From the NCBI RefSeq assembly GCF_056746865.1, contig NZ_CM163382.1: a stretch of 64,000 nucleotides of DNA; one strand, given 5' to 3'. Below are positions 50,390 to 55,432 of this stretch, one piece after another. The notes beneath the pieces are model-generated. The model worked only from the letters and a program-made list of their open reading frames with translations, was not told where the DNA came from and ran no database searches. Numbering within the stretch: position 1 is the stretch's first letter; each line of letters begins with the position of its first letter. The translations under genes and the position numbers were made by a program.

Positions 50390-51319
50390 ATGCGAGTAAC
50401 CACCCAACAAACCTACGTCTCGATGACGCAAAGTTTTAATAATCTCTCCGGCGATCTGGCGCATGTGGTCGAGCAGATGGCAACCGGCAAGGAAATTTTG
50501 CAGCCGTCGGATGACCCGATCGCCGCCACGCGCATCACCCAGTTGAACCGCCAACAGTCGGCGATTGAGCAGTATCAGAGCAATATCGACTCCGCGTCGG
50601 CGGGGTTAAGTCAGCAGGAATCAATCCTTGATGGCGTCAACAACAGCCTGCTGGCGGTGCGCGACGACCTGCTGGAAGCGGCGAATGGCACCAATACCGC
50701 CGATTCGCTCGCAAGTCTCGGGCAGGATATTGAGTCGCTCACCGAATCAATGGTCGTGGCGCTGAACTATCAGGACGAAGACGGGCATTACGTGTTTGGC
50801 GGTACCATCAACGATCAGCCGCCGATTGTGGCGGTGGACGATGACGGCGATGGCGTGACCGACAGCTACAGCTATCAGGGCAACAGCGACCACCGCCAGA
50901 CCACGGTGTCGAACGGCGTGGAAGTGGATACCAACGTGGCGGCGAGCGATTTCTTCGGCAGCAATTTAGATGTGCTCAACACACTGAATACCCTGTCGCA
51001 GGAGTTGCAAGACCCAAACGTTGACCCGGCCGATCCGCAGGTGCAGAGCGATATTCAGAACGCCGTTGATGTGGTGGACACCGCCTCGGATAACCTCAAC
51101 GCCTCGATTGCGTCGCTCGGCGAGACGCAGAACACCATGTCGATGTTGAGCGATGCGCAGACCGATATCTCTACCTCTAATGATGAGCTGATTGGTTCAT
51201 TACAGGATCTCGATTACGGCCCGGCGTCGATCACCTTTACCGGACTGGAAGTAGCAATGGAAGCTACCCTCAAGACTTACTCGAAAGTGAGTGAGTTGAA
51301 TTTGTTCAGCGTTCTCTAA
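50390..51319 (+). CDS. lfgL: Hook-associated protein 3 FlgL homolog
   Basis: Start MRVTTQQTYVSM… within ORF 50366..51319; flagellin-like N-terminus. Confidence 0.8.
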   Translation: MRVTTQQTYVSMTQSFNNLSGDLAHVVEQMATGKEILQPSDDPIAATRITQLNRQQSAIEQYQSNIDSASAGLSQQESILDGVNNSLLAVRDDLLEAANGTNTADSLASLGQDIESLTESMVVALNYQDEDGHYVFGGTINDQPPIVAVDDDGDGVTDSYSYQGNSDHRQTTVSNGVEVDTNVAASDFFGSNLDVLNTLNTLSQELQDPNVDPADPQVQSDIQNAVDVVDTASDNLNASIASLGETQNTMSMLSDAQTDISTSNDELIGSLQDLDYGPASITFTGLEVAMEATLKTYSKVSELNLFSVL

Positions 51320-51335
51320 CTCTTTCAGGAACAGT

Positions 51336-52313
51336 ATGCAGGTCGGACTTACATCTTCGTCACTCGCCACCGGCGGCGCGCATAGCGCTGCGGTATCGTC
51401 GTCAACCGTTGCGCCCACTCAGGCGGTGCGGCAAAAACTCCCGGCGACGGCGAGTGAATATCCGGCCTCGCCGCTGATTACCACTCGCCCGCAGCGTTAC
51501 AGCGTGCAGCTTAACGACCAGCTCACCACGTTGCAGCAGGCGGATCACTATCTCGGGCAACTGGAGCAGCAGTTGCTCGATTATCGTCACAGCCAGCGCA
51601 AAGGCGGGCAGGCGCAGAGTTCGGCGCTGATGCAGATGCTGGACAAACGCACCGCGCTTTCCGGCGGTGCGGTGGACCGCCAGTTGCAGCCAGTGTTGCA
51701 GGGGGAAGCGCGGGTGACTTTTCACTCGCCGGATCTGGCGAATCTGGTACACAATCCCACGCCGGGAACGCGCATGTTCAGCGTCTCTGACGGGCGGCAG
51801 ACTCAGCTTTCGGCGGTGATGCTGTCTGAGGATGACAGCGCTGGGCAGTACCAGACGCGGCTGACCAACGCCCTGCGCCGCGTGGGCGTGCAGATGCATC
51901 AAAACGCCGATGGTATAAGTTTCTCCACCACTGAAAAACAGTGGCCCAACATTGAAAGCACCCTAAGCGTGCGCACCGATGGTGATAAATCAGCGTTTAT
52001 GCCACTAAAAACCTTTGCCGAACCGTCGCAGGCGGACCGCTTAGTGCAAAGCCTGCAACAGGGCGGAGCGGGGATTTCTCAGACGTTAGAAAGCATTAAT
52101 CAGCAGCGTGTGCAGATGGCGGTACAGCAGGAAAAGGCGCGGCAGTTGATCGACGGCATGTCGCGCTTCCCGCAAACGGAAAGCGCCGTGCAGGCGTCGG
52201 AAAATCTCGGCGGCGTGCTGGATAGCGCCAATCATAACTATCAGGTTTTATTGCAGGCGGTGAACGGTCAGGCGCGAATTTCCAGCCAGACGGTGAGGAG
52301 TTTATTGGGTTAG
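51336..52313 (+). CDS. lafW: Lateral-flagellar protein LafW-like (function uncertain)
   Basis: 325-aa ORF after flgL; assignment by position in the Flag-2 gene order. Confidence 0.5.
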   Translation: MQVGLTSSSLATGGAHSAAVSSSTVAPTQAVRQKLPATASEYPASPLITTRPQRYSVQLNDQLTTLQQADHYLGQLEQQLLDYRHSQRKGGQAQSSALMQMLDKRTALSGGAVDRQLQPVLQGEARVTFHSPDLANLVHNPTPGTRMFSVSDGRQTQLSAVMLSEDDSAGQYQTRLTNALRRVGVQMHQNADGISFSTTEKQWPNIESTLSVRTDGDKSAFMPLKTFAEPSQADRLVQSLQQGGAGISQTLESINQQRVQMAVQQEKARQLIDGMSRFPQTESAVQASENLGGVLDSANHNYQVLLQAVNGQARISSQTVRSLLG

Positions 52314-52334
52314 GGTTATTGTCATTGTTGCTTT

Positions 52335-52376
52335 TATAGCTATTAAGCTATAGTTTATCTATAGCATAAAAGCTAT
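52335..52376. promoter_or_regulatory. Tandem palindromic operator-like sites upstream of the toxin gene
   Basis: TATAGCtattaaGCTATA and TATAGCataaaaGCTAT, two inverted-repeat pairs ending about 10 bp before the toxin ATG. Confidence 0.55.
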
Positions 52377-52385
52377 GAGGGACCG

Positions 52386-52730
52386 ATGATGTGGGACGTC
52401 GAGACAACGGAGACTTTCGACAACTGGTTTGATGCCCAGACTGTTGCGCTGAAAGAAGATTTACTTGCTGCAATGCTGATTCTTGCTGAGTATGGCCCAC
52501 AGTTGGGCAGACCCTTTGCGGATACGGTTAATGATTCACAGTTTTCAAATATGAAAGAATTACGCGTCCAACATCAGGGAAACCCGGTACGTGCTTTTTT
52601 TGCTTTCGATCCTGCGCGCCGTGGCATTGTATTATGTGCGGGTGATAAAACGGGGTTAAATGAGAAAAAGTTTTATCGCGATATGATCAAGCTCGCTGAT
52701 TCTGAATACCGTAAGCATCTGAAAAAGTAA
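52386..52730 (+). CDS. Type II toxin, RelE/ParE superfamily (HigB-like)
   Basis: 114-aa ORF MMWDVETTETFDNWFDAQ…GNPVRAFFAFDPARRGIVLCAGDKTG…, the toxin class usually encoded upstream of an HTH antitoxin. Confidence 0.7.
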   Translation: MMWDVETTETFDNWFDAQTVALKEDLLAAMLILAEYGPQLGRPFADTVNDSQFSNMKELRVQHQGNPVRAFFAFDPARRGIVLCAGDKTGLNEKKFYRDMIKLADSEYRKHLKK

Positions 52731-52739
52731 GGAACGATA

Positions 52740-53039
52740 ATGGCTACTCTAAAAGAACTGATGGCAAAGCAAAGCCCTGAAAGCCAGGTGCGTATTGCGG
52801 CAAAAGTTGAGGAAATGCGCCAGACCATCGCCTTGCATCAGCTGAGAGAAGAACTCAATATTTCGCAAACGGAAATGGCGGCAGCGATGGGCATTAAGCA
52901 ACCGACTCTTGCAAAAATGGAGCAGGCAGATAACGATCCTCGGTTGTCTACGCTAAAACGCTATGTTGCGGCTTTAGGTGGGGAATTGAGTATCGACGTT
53001 AAACTGCCGAATGGTAAGAGAATTGCATTTCAGATTTAA
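52740..53039 (+). CDS. HTH (XRE-family) antitoxin, HigA-like
   Basis: 99-aa ORF 10 bp after the toxin; HTH segment LNISQTEMAAAMGIKQPTLAKME. Confidence 0.7.
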   Translation: MATLKELMAKQSPESQVRIAAKVEEMRQTIALHQLREELNISQTEMAAAMGIKQPTLAKMEQADNDPRLSTLKRYVAALGGELSIDVKLPNGKRIAFQI

Positions 53040-53057
53040 TTTTGGGGTGCATTTTAT

Positions 53058-53092
53058 GAACCGGATTAGATAAAACGGTATCTAATCCGGTA
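53058..53092. terminator. Bidirectional hairpin between the antitoxin gene and the lafZ-like gene
   Basis: accggattagata aaacgg tatctaatccggt, perfect 13-bp stem. Confidence 0.5.
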
Positions 53093-53096
53093 AACA

Positions 53097-53990
53097 TCAG
53101 CATTTCTGCACAGTATTTAACAACTTCTCTAAATTCTGATACATCGCGCTATTAATATCGCTATTCTGCCAGCTATCCACATTAAAAGTTAATTGCCAGC
53201 TACCGTTGCACTGGTTGCGCAGAACAATATCACTCTCCAGTCGGTTACGAACATATTTATAATAGGTTGTCATTGTCATATTATGCGCTGACAATAAATT
53301 ATCGAGTTTGTCTTTTCCTGGTGCGAGGGTTTGTGACAGTAACGGTACGGAATTATTTTCCTTTCCAGAACTAAGATGAAATATTTTTATTCTTGGACTG
53401 TTAATTGACTCTTTTACCAGTTGCGGGGCGTCAGGTGTACTTTTCAAGTGTGAATACCCCACGGTTGAGCCAACCAATATAACAGCTGCGGCCAACGCTA
53501 ACCCCATCAGTCCTTTATGTTTTTTTCTAACAGGCACATACGGTGTTGTCGAAGATATCTCTTCTGGGGCTGTATCCTGTATCTGGTCGGTAATAATCAG
53601 CGCTTCTGCAGGCGATGACTCCGGCAAAGACACATACTCTTTATTGCATAAGTAACCTTTCTTCGGAATTGTTTTAATAATGTTCTGTTGTTTGCCATCA
53701 TCGTCGATAGCAACGCGCAACGCATGGATCGCCGTCGGCAGGCTGTTTCCGCCGACAATACGGTTCTTCCATACTTCGGCACATAAATAAGATCGCGATA
53801 AAACCACATCGGCATTTTTTGCTAATGTTTCCAGCAAAATAAAATGGTATTCGCCGAGACGACGTGTTTCACCCGTTTCGCAATGTATTAAGGCATTAAG
53901 CGACGGGTCCATCCGCCAGTTGTTGATAATAATACTCATAGTTGAGTTTACCTTAGCAAGGGATAAATGTTTCCTGATAGTGCTTTGCAT
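53097..53990 (-). CDS. lafZ: ToxR/CadC-like membrane-anchored transcriptional regulator (LafZ-like)
   Basis: 297-aa ORF: N-terminal winged-helix OmpR/PhoB-type DNA-binding region, a single TM segment (GLMGLALAAAVILVGSTVGY) and a C-terminal periplasmic part. AT-rich. Confidence 0.6.
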   Translation of the reverse strand: MQSTIRKHLSLAKVNSTMSIIINNWRMDPSLNALIHCETGETRRLGEYHFILLETLAKNADVVLSRSYLCAEVWKNRIVGGNSLPTAIHALRVAIDDDGKQQNIIKTIPKKGYLCNKEYVSLPESSPAEALIITDQIQDTAPEEISSTTPYVPVRKKHKGLMGLALAAAVILVGSTVGYSHLKSTPDAPQLVKESINSPRIKIFHLSSGKENNSVPLLSQTLAPGKDKLDNLLSAHNMTMTTYYKYVRNRLESDIVLRNQCNGSWQLTFNVDSWQNSDINSAMYQNLEKLLNTVQKC

Positions 53991-54424
53991 AAAGCACAGT
54001 CTTATACGTCCCTGAGAAGATGATTTTTCTGCGTGATAATTAATATTTTATGGTGATAAGATTATTCTTAATCACTATATAGCGTGGAAATGTAACGAAA
54101 TGACAGGACAGGTACAATAGCCAAATGTGTACTATTTGCAACGCAATGTAAATTTTGGCATCAGTACATTGAGAACAAAACGCGATAATTGATGACAATC
54201 TTAACTATATCAAGCGTTTGATAAAGACATATTTTGATACCTGGCCATGTGGCAGATATTGCTAATAATCTTTTTATCTGAATTTAAACTCTGCTTTTTT
54301 TAGCTAAAAGTGGCATCGGATAATACGTGGCGAAAAAATTTTAACGGCGATTTTAAGTTTGCTCCTGAGGTGTCGTTTTTACAGGGTATCGAAACGAAAA
54401 CGATTAATCCCAAGGAGCAGTATC

Positions 54425-55339
54425 ATGTTATCTATTAACACCAATAACGCCTCAATGGCCGCCGTTAATGCAATCAGCAAAAGCAGCTCTTCTCTGTCTA
54501 CATCTATGGAACGCCTGGCGACAGGTAACCGGATTAACTCTTCTGCCGATGACGCCGCAGGCAAACAAATTGCTAACCGTCTGACAGCACAGTCCAGCGG
54601 TATGGGTGTTGCGCTGAGCAACATCAATGATGCCACCGCGATGCTGCAAACCGCTGACAGCATGTTCGACGAAATGTCTGACGTGCTGGGTCGTATGAAA
54701 GACCTGTCAACTCAGGCAGCGAACGGCACCTACAGCGACGACGACCTGCAGGCGATGCAGGACGAATACGACGAACTGGGCCAGCAGATGTCTGACATGC
54801 TGCAAAACACCACTTACGGCGGCACCAACCTGTTCGGTGTTTCCGGTACCAGCAACACCGGTACTGACGGTCTGTTCCAGAGCGCGGTAACTTTCCAGGT
54901 GGGCGCGGAATCTTCCGACACCATGACCGTGAATATTTCAAGCCAGCTGAATACCCTGGTGACGGATCTTTCTGCAATCAGCAACTCCTTTAGTGCGGAT
55001 CAGGCTGACACCACTGGCACCGCAGGCGTTTCTGGCGGTACTGAGCTGACTGCGTCTGGCTCGGCTAACCAGATGATCACCAGCATCTCTACCGCGATGG
55101 ATGACGTGTCTCAGATCCAGTCCAAGCTGGGTGCCTCTATCAACCGTCTGAACGACACTGCCAACAACCTGACCAGTATGCAAGACAACACCGAAGTCGC
55201 TATCGGTAACATCATGGATACCGACTACGCGACGGAAGCGTCCAATATGACCAAACAGCAAGTGCTGATGCAGACTGGCATCACCATGCTGAAACAGTCC
55301 AACAGCATGTCCAGCATGGTTTCCAGCCTGCTGCAGTAA
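54425..55339 (+). CDS. lafA: Lateral flagellin
   Basis: Start MLSINTNNASMAAVNAISKS… within ORF 54359..55339; flagellin N- and C-terminal domains (…LMQTGITMLKQSNSMSSMVSSLLQ). Confidence 0.9.
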   Translation: MLSINTNNASMAAVNAISKSSSSLSTSMERLATGNRINSSADDAAGKQIANRLTAQSSGMGVALSNINDATAMLQTADSMFDEMSDVLGRMKDLSTQAANGTYSDDDLQAMQDEYDELGQQMSDMLQNTTYGGTNLFGVSGTSNTGTDGLFQSAVTFQVGAESSDTMTVNISSQLNTLVTDLSAISNSFSADQADTTGTAGVSGGTELTASGSANQMITSISTAMDDVSQIQSKLGASINRLNDTANNLTSMQDNTEVAIGNIMDTDYATEASNMTKQQVLMQTGITMLKQSNSMSSMVSSLLQ

Positions 55340-55382
55340 TGGCGGACTTGCCGATGCGGCGTAAACGCCTTATCCGGCCACG

Positions 55383-55432
55383 AACAACACCGCCTGCGGG
55401 CGGTGTTGTGCTTTCAGCGGCAGGCTTTTTTC
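55383..55432 (+). terminator. Putative terminator after lafA
   Basis: Hairpin aacaacaccgcc tgc gggcggtgttgt, then a second GC stem with a T-run. Confidence 0.45.

Follow-up and report, generated by a model that had tools for sequence, protein, structure and literature searches.

The lafZ gene and its surroundings

The window, by which we mean the whole 64-kb stretch of DNA that was analyzed, carries genes in the order lfgK-lfgL-lafW, a toxin-antitoxin (TA) pair, lafZ (on the minus strand), lafA, lafB and so on. The features around lafZ are listed below.

51336..52313, plus strand: lafW, a putative hook-associated, Flag-2-specific gene, convergent with lafZ (assigned from position and literature)
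52386..53039, plus strand: TA pair consisting of a Gp49/RelE-type toxin (52386/52389-52730) and an HTH antitoxin (52740-53039)
53097..53939, minus strand: lafZ coding sequence, 280 aa plus stop codon (843 bp in the RefSeq annotation of an identical chromosome)
53940..54424, no strand: lafZ-lafA divergent spacer, 485 bp, 35% GC
54425..55339, plus strand: lafA, lateral flagellin gene, divergent from lafZ (NCBIfam lat_flg_LafA_1, 667 bits against a cutoff of 440)

The segment between positions 51300 and 55400 is 100% identical to many complete E. coli chromosomes and was matched in 1281 of 5426 complete E. coli genomes; Flag-2 is thus present in about a quarter of them. In one such chromosome, that of strain 118UI, the gene is annotated as a “transcriptional regulator” of 843 bp (protein WP_000022366.1), is flanked by genes for a hypothetical protein (lafW) and a RelE/ParE-type toxin/HTH antitoxin pair on one side and by lafA on the other, and sits inside a complete second flagellar locus. 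Since this accession occurs in a chromosome identical to the window over 51300-55400 and again in the slot of lafZ in E. coli 042, we identify the open reading frame as the lafZ gene of the Flag-2 (lateral flagella) locus of E. coli. A comparison with LafZ of other Flag-2 loci, proposed in the original prediction, therefore turned out to be a comparison of LafZ with itself: 042 carries the same protein, without a sequence difference, in the same slot between lafW (with the TA pair) and lafA. The Flag-2 locus was first delimited in strain 042 (for LafZ, see Ren et al. 2005 and De Maayer et al. 2020); the name “putative transmembrane regulator” was given to the protein in 2005, and it has been described as unique to Flag-2 (PMC6993521, PMC7526173). 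lafZ is, then, an already named gene and a member of a well-known class of regulators, and what is added here to published LafZ is the fold of its periplasmic domain, an invariant cysteine pair, a corrected start and an observation on a partner gene. Searches of the available literature returned no experiment on LafZ.

On the minus strand, a scan for open reading frames in the window found 297 codons between 53097 and 53990. Translation from the in-frame ATG at 53990 would lengthen LafZ by 17 residues, and no Shine-Dalgarno sequence is present there; the second ATG, at 53939 (MSIIINNW...), is preceded by AAGG at a distance of 11 nt. It is at this second ATG, with MSII(I/V)NNW, that RefSeq and nearly all homologues begin. 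The true start is most likely Met18 of the 297-aa frame, which yields a protein of 280 aa and leaves the ATG at 53990 unused. A start at 53939 also means that the spacer to lafA measures 485 bp rather than 434 bp. The frame originally predicted is thus real, but its length of 297 aa has to be shortened; likewise, the divergent arrangement with lafA across an AT-rich region (35% GC) stands, while the 434 bp given for that region should probably be replaced by 485 bp. An exhaustive HMMER search retrieved hundreds of LafZ homologues (3662 representative clusters at E ≤ 1e-3, and ~45 full-length family clusters), from which we conclude that lafZ is a real gene.

The TA pair (Pfam Gp49, 1.2e-20, and HTH_3, 9.9e-13), previously noted between lafW and lafZ in strain 042 (PMC3032704), was found in 71 of 1272 (~6%) E. 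coli genomes that carry the lafZ region, and in E. marmotae a REP-like element occupies its place. The GC content is 0.42 for lafZ, 0.35 for the lafZ-lafA spacer, 0.45-0.47 for the TA genes and 0.54-0.60 for the neighboring flagellar genes. The AT-rich segment that the regulator had been said to share with the TA pair is incidental: the pair is a strain-variable insertion and is not part of the regulator.

Domain architecture of LafZ

The 280 residues of LafZ can be divided into four parts.

53640..53939, minus strand: predicted cytoplasmic winged-helix DNA-binding domain, residues 1-100 of 280 (Trans_reg_C)
53517..53639, minus strand: variable, disordered juxtamembrane linker, residues 101-141 (low pLDDT)
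53445..53516, minus strand: single transmembrane (TM) helix, residues 142-165 (hydropathy, AlphaFold helix)
53100..53444, minus strand: periplasmic domain, residues 166-280, beta2-alpha-beta3-alpha, with invariant Cys244 and Cys280

Residues 42-114 (in the 297-aa numbering) matched the Pfam family Trans_reg_C, an OmpR/PhoB-type winged helix, with an E value of 1.5e-13 and 51 bits against a cutoff of 26. This is the sole Pfam domain in LafZ; there is no receiver domain and nothing upstream of the winged helix. The best sequence matches in the PDB were the DNA-binding domains of ToxR (8b4b, 3.8e-8) and CadC (5ju7, 2.4e-6), and AlphaFold modeled the winged helix with pLDDT above 90. In the linker, pLDDT drops below 50 at residues 116-131 and 136-138, and both the length and the sequence of this part differ among the aligned family members.

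Hydropathy analysis identified exactly one TM segment, since only one stretch is strongly hydrophobic (residues 160-178 of the 297-aa frame, where the Kyte-Doolittle average over 19 residues peaks at 2.02), and AlphaFold modeled it as a helix. The sequence RKKHK lies N-terminal of it, and about 115 residues come after it. Judging from the positive-inside rule and from the family, the N-terminus should face inward and the C-terminus outward.

The full-length AlphaFold model, built from 51 family members, has a mean pLDDT of 87.6 and a compact C-terminal domain. The C-terminal 113 residues modeled alone reached a pLDDT of 92.9, with elements in the order strand-strand-helix-strand-strand-strand-helix. 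When the periplasmic domain alone was compared by sequence with Pfam and the PDB, no match was obtained, and only a fold comparison of the predicted structure succeeded; it assigned to the domain the VtrA/ToxR beta2-alpha-beta3-alpha fold. Every one of the 51 family members in the alignment has both Cys244 and the C-terminal Cys280. The pair resembles the cysteines of ToxR, which form a periplasmic disulfide (PMC7265457), and may form a Cys244-Cys280 disulfide in LafZ as well. LafZ is a ToxR-like bitopic factor with a winged helix, no receiver domain and a single TM segment, and the combination of winged helix, one TM segment and periplasmic domain originally read from the sequence was confirmed by the Trans_reg_C match, the single hydrophobic segment and the AlphaFold model.

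The likeness to individual known regulators has clear limits. The periplasmic domain of VtrA of Vibrio parahaemolyticus, a part of the VtrA/VtrC bile-salt receptor (PDB 5kev), shares only 10% identity with that of LafZ; the genomic context of VtrA is T3SS2, whereas that of LafZ is flagellar, and a gene for a VtrC-like partner is absent from E. coli. ToxR of Vibrio, which acts with ToxS, has no detectable sequence similarity to LafZ beyond the winged helix, and E. coli lacks a toxS-like gene to accompany LafZ. VtrA/VtrC, ToxR/ToxS and TcpP/TcpH have been defined as co-component systems by Kinch et al. 2022 (PMC9214523), who mention neither flagella nor LafZ. The YqeI/YqeJ, GrvA/FidL and MarT/FidL cassettes of E. 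coli and Salmonella have their architecture and operon logic in common with LafZ, but they are not specifically related to it, and models of the YqeI/GrvA/MarT type are without the C-terminal helix that LafZ has (PMC9214523). YqeI/YqeJ was considered as the closest E. coli relative and rejected: BLASTP aligned the winged helix only (E 0.018), and profile comparisons of the LafZ periplasmic domain and of the putative partner described below with YqeI/YqeJ gave probabilities below 1%. The yqeI and yqeJ genes overlap by 8 nt in K-12.

Distribution of lafZ and of an overlapping putative partner gene

A synteny scan with one genome per species yielded 80 lafZ loci across Enterobacterales. In 59 of them lafZ is followed closely by a homologue of lafW, and lafA is upstream and divergent in 45. 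In seven further species the lafZ cassette is flanked by lafS, the Flag-2 sigma-28 gene, and/or by lafK, the gene for the Flag-2 sigma-54 activator (both in five species, lafS only in one and lafK only in one), with no structural Flag-2 gene nearby. Thirteen species, mostly of Erwinia, have a cassette of lafZ and a partner gene with no Flag-2 gene within 3.5 kb.

Of 86 related loci, 71 have an overlapping open reading frame of ~150-170 aa behind lafZ, the putative partner gene. It opens in a different frame, 19-28 nt ahead of the stop codon of lafZ, and its ATG lies within the codons of the conserved C-terminal LafZ motif L-N-E-M. The encoded protein begins with MK(W/C/Y), is hydrophobic toward its N-terminus and contains a G(F/Y/L)YDL...E(I/V)Y motif. 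Database names for the family are “hypothetical protein” only, and family profiles made from 5 and from 34 sequences had no Pfam domain and no meaningful match in the PDB. In the comparative Flag-2 literature this slot is “variable region 2” (VR2), which holds on average one hypothetical protein. From its position, size and N-terminal anchor, the partner would be ToxS/VtrC-like, and the arrangement of lafZ and the overlapping frame follows the operon logic of ToxR/ToxS, TcpP/TcpH and VtrA/VtrC.

A tblastn search did not find the partner frame in the window, and the frame was absent from every Escherichia and Pseudocitrobacter locus examined; neither single-sequence nor profile searches of 5.8 billion proteins returned a partner homologue in E. 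coli. LafZ ends in LNTVQKC* in the window and in LNEMxxC in partner-bearing lineages, in which the ATG of the partner falls in the N-E-M codons. In Escherichia and Pseudocitrobacter, the gap between lafZ and lafW is ~58 bp, or is filled by the TA pair. A replacement of the partner gene by the TA pair was considered and rejected: TA-free Escherichia genomes, e.g., that of E. marmotae, lack the partner too, and the TA pair therefore did not displace it. LafZ in E. coli would be an orphan co-component regulator, an aspect that is new, though modest.

Selection on lafZ in the partner-less clade was assessed by pairwise dN/dS comparisons with E. whittamii, E. marmotae, other Escherichia and Pseudocitrobacter. 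The ratio was 0.03-0.09 for the winged helix and 0.03-0.14 (about 0.1) for the periplasmic domain; for the linker it was 0.2-0.6, and the linker and TM segment together spanned 0.2-1.0. Synonymous divergence reached saturation in these comparisons, and the lafZ frame was intact in all Escherichia and Pseudocitrobacter species sampled. To judge from the coding sequences, lafZ is under purifying selection in the partner-less clade and is not decaying.

The lafZ-lafA spacer and the proposed role of LafZ

Spacers equivalent to this one of 485 bp were compared in 51 species, and most of them measure 425-800 bp and have 29-40% GC. Four elements were located in it.

54089..54096, plus strand: conserved box 1, core AATGTAAC within GGAAATGTAACGAAA, candidate operator/promoter element
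54135..54152, plus strand: conserved box 2, TTTGCAACGCAATGTAAA, candidate operator/promoter element
54254..54277, plus strand: conserved block AGATATTGCTAATAATCTTTTTAT, near-invariant in a three-genus alignment
54353..54379, plus strand: sigma-28 (LafS)-like lafA promoter, TTAAGTTT-N11-GTCGTTTT, conserved motif

According to the alignments, both boxes and the block at 54254 are conserved across Escherichia, Pseudocitrobacter and Citrobacter, and the distance from box 1 to box 2 is exactly 56 bp in every locus that has both. No second match to the 18 nt of box 2 was found in the 64-kb window with 3 mismatches allowed. Six other sites in the window match the 8-nt AATGTAA(A/C) core common to both boxes, none of them upstream of lafK, and the conserved boxes were not found at other Flag-2 promoters, that of lafK included. 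The boxes are candidate sites of LafZ or of another regulator, or may belong to the lafZ promoter. They are not tied specifically to LafZ and do not recur elsewhere in the Flag-2 locus. Box 2 (TTTGCAAC) was also considered as a sigma-54 promoter, a reading rejected by eye, as the GG-to-GC spacing does not fit TGGCAC-N5-TTGCA.

The lafA-proximal motif resembles the sigma-28 consensus, TAAAGTTT-N11-GCCGATAA. In 41 of 51 species a motif of this kind precedes the lafA ATG by 46-82 nt, with 0.05 expected in shuffled sequences. By this motif, lafA looks like a late, LafS-dependent gene, and since it has a sigma-28-type promoter of its own, direct activation by LafZ is not needed to explain the divergent arrangement.

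We consider it probable (about 60%) that LafZ is a Flag-2-specific bitopic transcription factor of the ToxR/VtrA type that gates Flag-2 and whose partner was lost in Escherichia and Pseudocitrobacter. LafZ would be anchored in the inner membrane; its winged helix would face the cytoplasm and its cysteine pair would form a disulfide in the periplasm. It would bind AT-rich DNA near its own gene, where the AATGTAA boxes of the lafZ-lafA spacer are the best candidates, and would gate Flag-2 by controlling its own gene, the lafA-lafU operon (of which the sigma-28 gene lafS is a part), or both. As its signal we would expect a periplasmic cue, chemical or redox rather than mechanical. In most relatives the sensor would consist of two proteins, the downstream overlapping gene supplying a periplasmic partner in the role of ToxS/VtrC; in the Escherichia/Pseudocitrobacter lineage, which would have lost the partner gene, LafZ would act alone, perhaps constitutively or with altered signaling. 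That LafZ regulates Flag-2 at all is what we infer, and statements about the nature of its cue, its direct target and its partner-less signaling are speculative. Several points weigh against this reading: Flag-2 was silent in E. coli EC958 under the conditions tested (PMC4637896), lfgC is frameshifted in strain 042, lafA has a conserved sigma-28-type promoter, the conserved boxes do not recur in the Flag-2 locus, and 13 species keep the lafZ-partner cassette away from any Flag-2 gene.

One could expect LafZ to regulate genes outside Flag-2 instead, as a general colonization or virulence regulator like MarT, GrvA or VtrA whose position is the legacy of a landing site. The low GC content of lafZ (42% against 54-60% for the flagellar genes) would fit, as would the sigma-28-like promoter of lafA and the fact that known members of the family control adhesins and T3SS but not flagella (PMC9214523). 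The 13 species in which the lafZ-partner cassette is kept with no Flag-2 structural genes within 3.5 kb likewise suggest that the LafZ regulon may exceed Flag-2. However, the lafW-lafZ-lafA position is conserved across many genera, the flanks are often the Flag-2 regulators lafS and lafK where structural genes are missing, and noncoding blocks are conserved in the lafZ-lafA spacer, so we regard a role elsewhere as unlikely. We find it more doubtful still that E. coli lafZ is a functionless relic, which lost its partner and no longer signals while Flag-2 is silent or decaying in tested strains. It is true that the partner gene is absent from E. coli, that EC958, the one strain tested thoroughly, gave no detectable LafA at 28 or 37 °C, whether grown in LB broth or on LB soft agar (PMC4637896), and that truncated lafZ products of 257, 243, 207 and 178 aa occur in the database; lfgC is frameshifted in strain 042, whereas it is apparently intact in the strain background of the window. 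Yet the frame is intact in all sampled species of the clade, dN/dS stays at 0.03-0.14 in both folded domains while synonymous divergence saturates, and the largest E. coli cluster of LafZ, with 2295 member sequences, has the full 280 aa.

Two other proposals concern what LafZ senses. Lateral flagella of Vibrio are induced on surfaces, and it is this analogy alone that speaks for LafZ as a mechanosensor that couples lateral flagella to surface contact or viscosity, the cue suggested in the original prediction. The periplasmic fold, as modeled, is that of the ligand-sensing domains of VtrA and ToxR, both of them chemical (bile-salt) sensors, and nothing in LafZ resembles a flagellar stator or a load-sensing element. 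In relatives, moreover, LafZ is paired with a small periplasmic protein, and a VtrA/ToxR-type sensor with such a partner is the arrangement for bile-salt binding (PMC4933562, PMC9214523). The VtrA/ToxR fold of the sensor thus favors a periplasmic chemical or redox cue, e.g., bile salts, to which attention should be directed, over surface contact, and mechanosensing appears very improbable. Least credible of all is that LafZ is an orthologue or paralogue of CadC, i.e., a sensor of the pH/lysine type, even though several database records read “CadC family transcriptional regulator”. We rejected membership in the CadC family, because LafZ scored 33.8 bits against a cutoff of 400 with the equivalog NF007540 and only the winged helix aligned. 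The CadC sensor is a periplasmic domain of ~320 aa with two subdomains, whereas that of LafZ, at 113 aa, is three times smaller; fold comparison placed VtrA and ToxR structurally closer to LafZ than CadC, and no cadBA was found near lafZ, the neighbors being flagellar genes. As a statement of family membership, the original label “ToxR/CadC-type” can thus be kept in its ToxR half only.

Returning to LafZ as a regulator that gates Flag-2, we note that LafZ and LafK are the locus-specific regulators, which makes LafZ the obvious handle on the condition that induces Flag-2. A more specific version, in which LafZ and the overlapping frame form a previously unrecognized co-component sensor of the VtrA/VtrC type, dedicated to Flag-2 across Enterobacterales, and LafZ of Escherichia and Pseudocitrobacter has adapted after loss of the partner, is put forward tentatively, at somewhat less than even odds. 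The partner is absent from Escherichia and present in Citrobacter and most other genera, which provides a handle on the co-component mechanism; if this version is true, partner-less Escherichia and Pseudocitrobacter would be a natural comparison for the share of the partner in signaling.

LafZ divergence and the partner ORF family

Comparison with loci L015 and L016 showed that the Flag-2 regulator LafZ, encoded on the minus strand of the window (53097-53939), has diverged much faster than the products of flanking genes. Between E. coli and Pseudocitrobacter, LafA is 100% identical and LfgL and LafW are 93-98% identical, whereas LafZ is only 63-67% identical. Between the same organisms, no DNA-level alignment could be obtained for the part of lafZ that encodes the linker, the TM segment and the start of the periplasmic domain.

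At 71 of the 86 loci, the 3′ end of lafZ is overlapped by a partner ORF of 150-170 codons. The family consists of unannotated proteins that all begin with MK(W/C/Y), are hydrophobic at the N-terminus and contain the motif GxYDL...E(I/V)Y; neither a Pfam domain nor a PDB sequence match was found for it. Partner ORFs are listed below by locus, and further ones come from loci L017-L089.

L006, 5932-6411, partner ORF
L002, 1947-2459, partner ORF
L003, 1815-2288, partner ORF
L005, 3118/3133-3588, partner ORF

The gene caller overlooked the partner on one metagenome contig (L005) at the least, and called an ORF on the opposite strand instead.

Cassettes away from flagellar structural genes

The lafZ-partner cassette is flanked by the genes of the Flag-2 σ28 factor (lafS) and/or the σ54 activator (lafK) at loci L043, L048, L054, L064 and L084, and also at L039 and L070, with Winslowiella, Erwinia, Silvania, Kosakonia, Limnobaculum and Cedecea as the genera represented. 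No flagellar structural genes are present within 3.5 kb of these lafS/lafK-flanked cassettes. In thirteen other species, chiefly of Erwinia and Pantoea, the cassette is retained and its vicinity is free of Flag-2 genes. Cassettes without nearby structural genes may be regulator-only remnants or may reflect a different locus layout.

Toxin–antitoxin insertion between lafW and lafZ

The interval between lafW and lafZ contains the following features:

52386-53039, Gp49/RelE-type toxin and HTH antitoxin pair, an insertion of ca. 725 bp
53060-53092, perfect 13-bp inverted repeat (ACCGGATTAGATA ... TATCTAATCCGGT) between the stop codon of the antitoxin gene and that of lafZ, the two genes being convergent

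Of the 1272 E. coli genomes that carry the region, only 71 have the pair; it also occurs at this position in one genome of Pseudocitrobacter faecalis (L007). In relatives free of it, a REP-like palindrome is located at this site. The inverted repeat seems to be part of the insertion and could serve as a bidirectional terminator. Strain EC958 has been described as lacking "lafWZ (putative toxin/antitoxin system)" (PMC4637896), a wording that appears to mix up lafW and lafZ with the toxin–antitoxin pair, whose place in strain 042 is between these two genes.

The lafA promoter and the state of the Flag-2 locus

The window and, at the corresponding position, 41 of the 51 species loci have a conserved motif, TT(T/A)A(A/G/T)TT-N10-14-(G/C)(T/C)CG(T/C)TT, 46-82 nt upstream of lafA; it is probably the Flag-2 recognition sequence of LafS. 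A stretch of 27 bp shortly 3′ of lafA matches four copies elsewhere in the E. marmotae locus (L009), tandemly spaced there at 111-bp intervals, and may represent a repeat of the REP or terminator type.

54353-54379, lateral-flagellin promoter motif
55353-55379, 27-bp possible repeat

In E. coli 042, lfgC (annotated as flgC) is frameshifted (L092, 33971-34404). Strain 118UI matches the window across the region compared, and since its lfgC is annotated as intact (window/L001, 11047-11478), the window's Flag-2 locus may be structurally complete. The left part of the window (about 1-22750) contains:

T6SS genes tssB, hcp and a truncated vgrG
ISAs1 fragments, with an interrupting group II intron (ltrA)
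ISEc1
ISEc31 (IS3 family), directly adjoining lfhA at the Flag-2 edge
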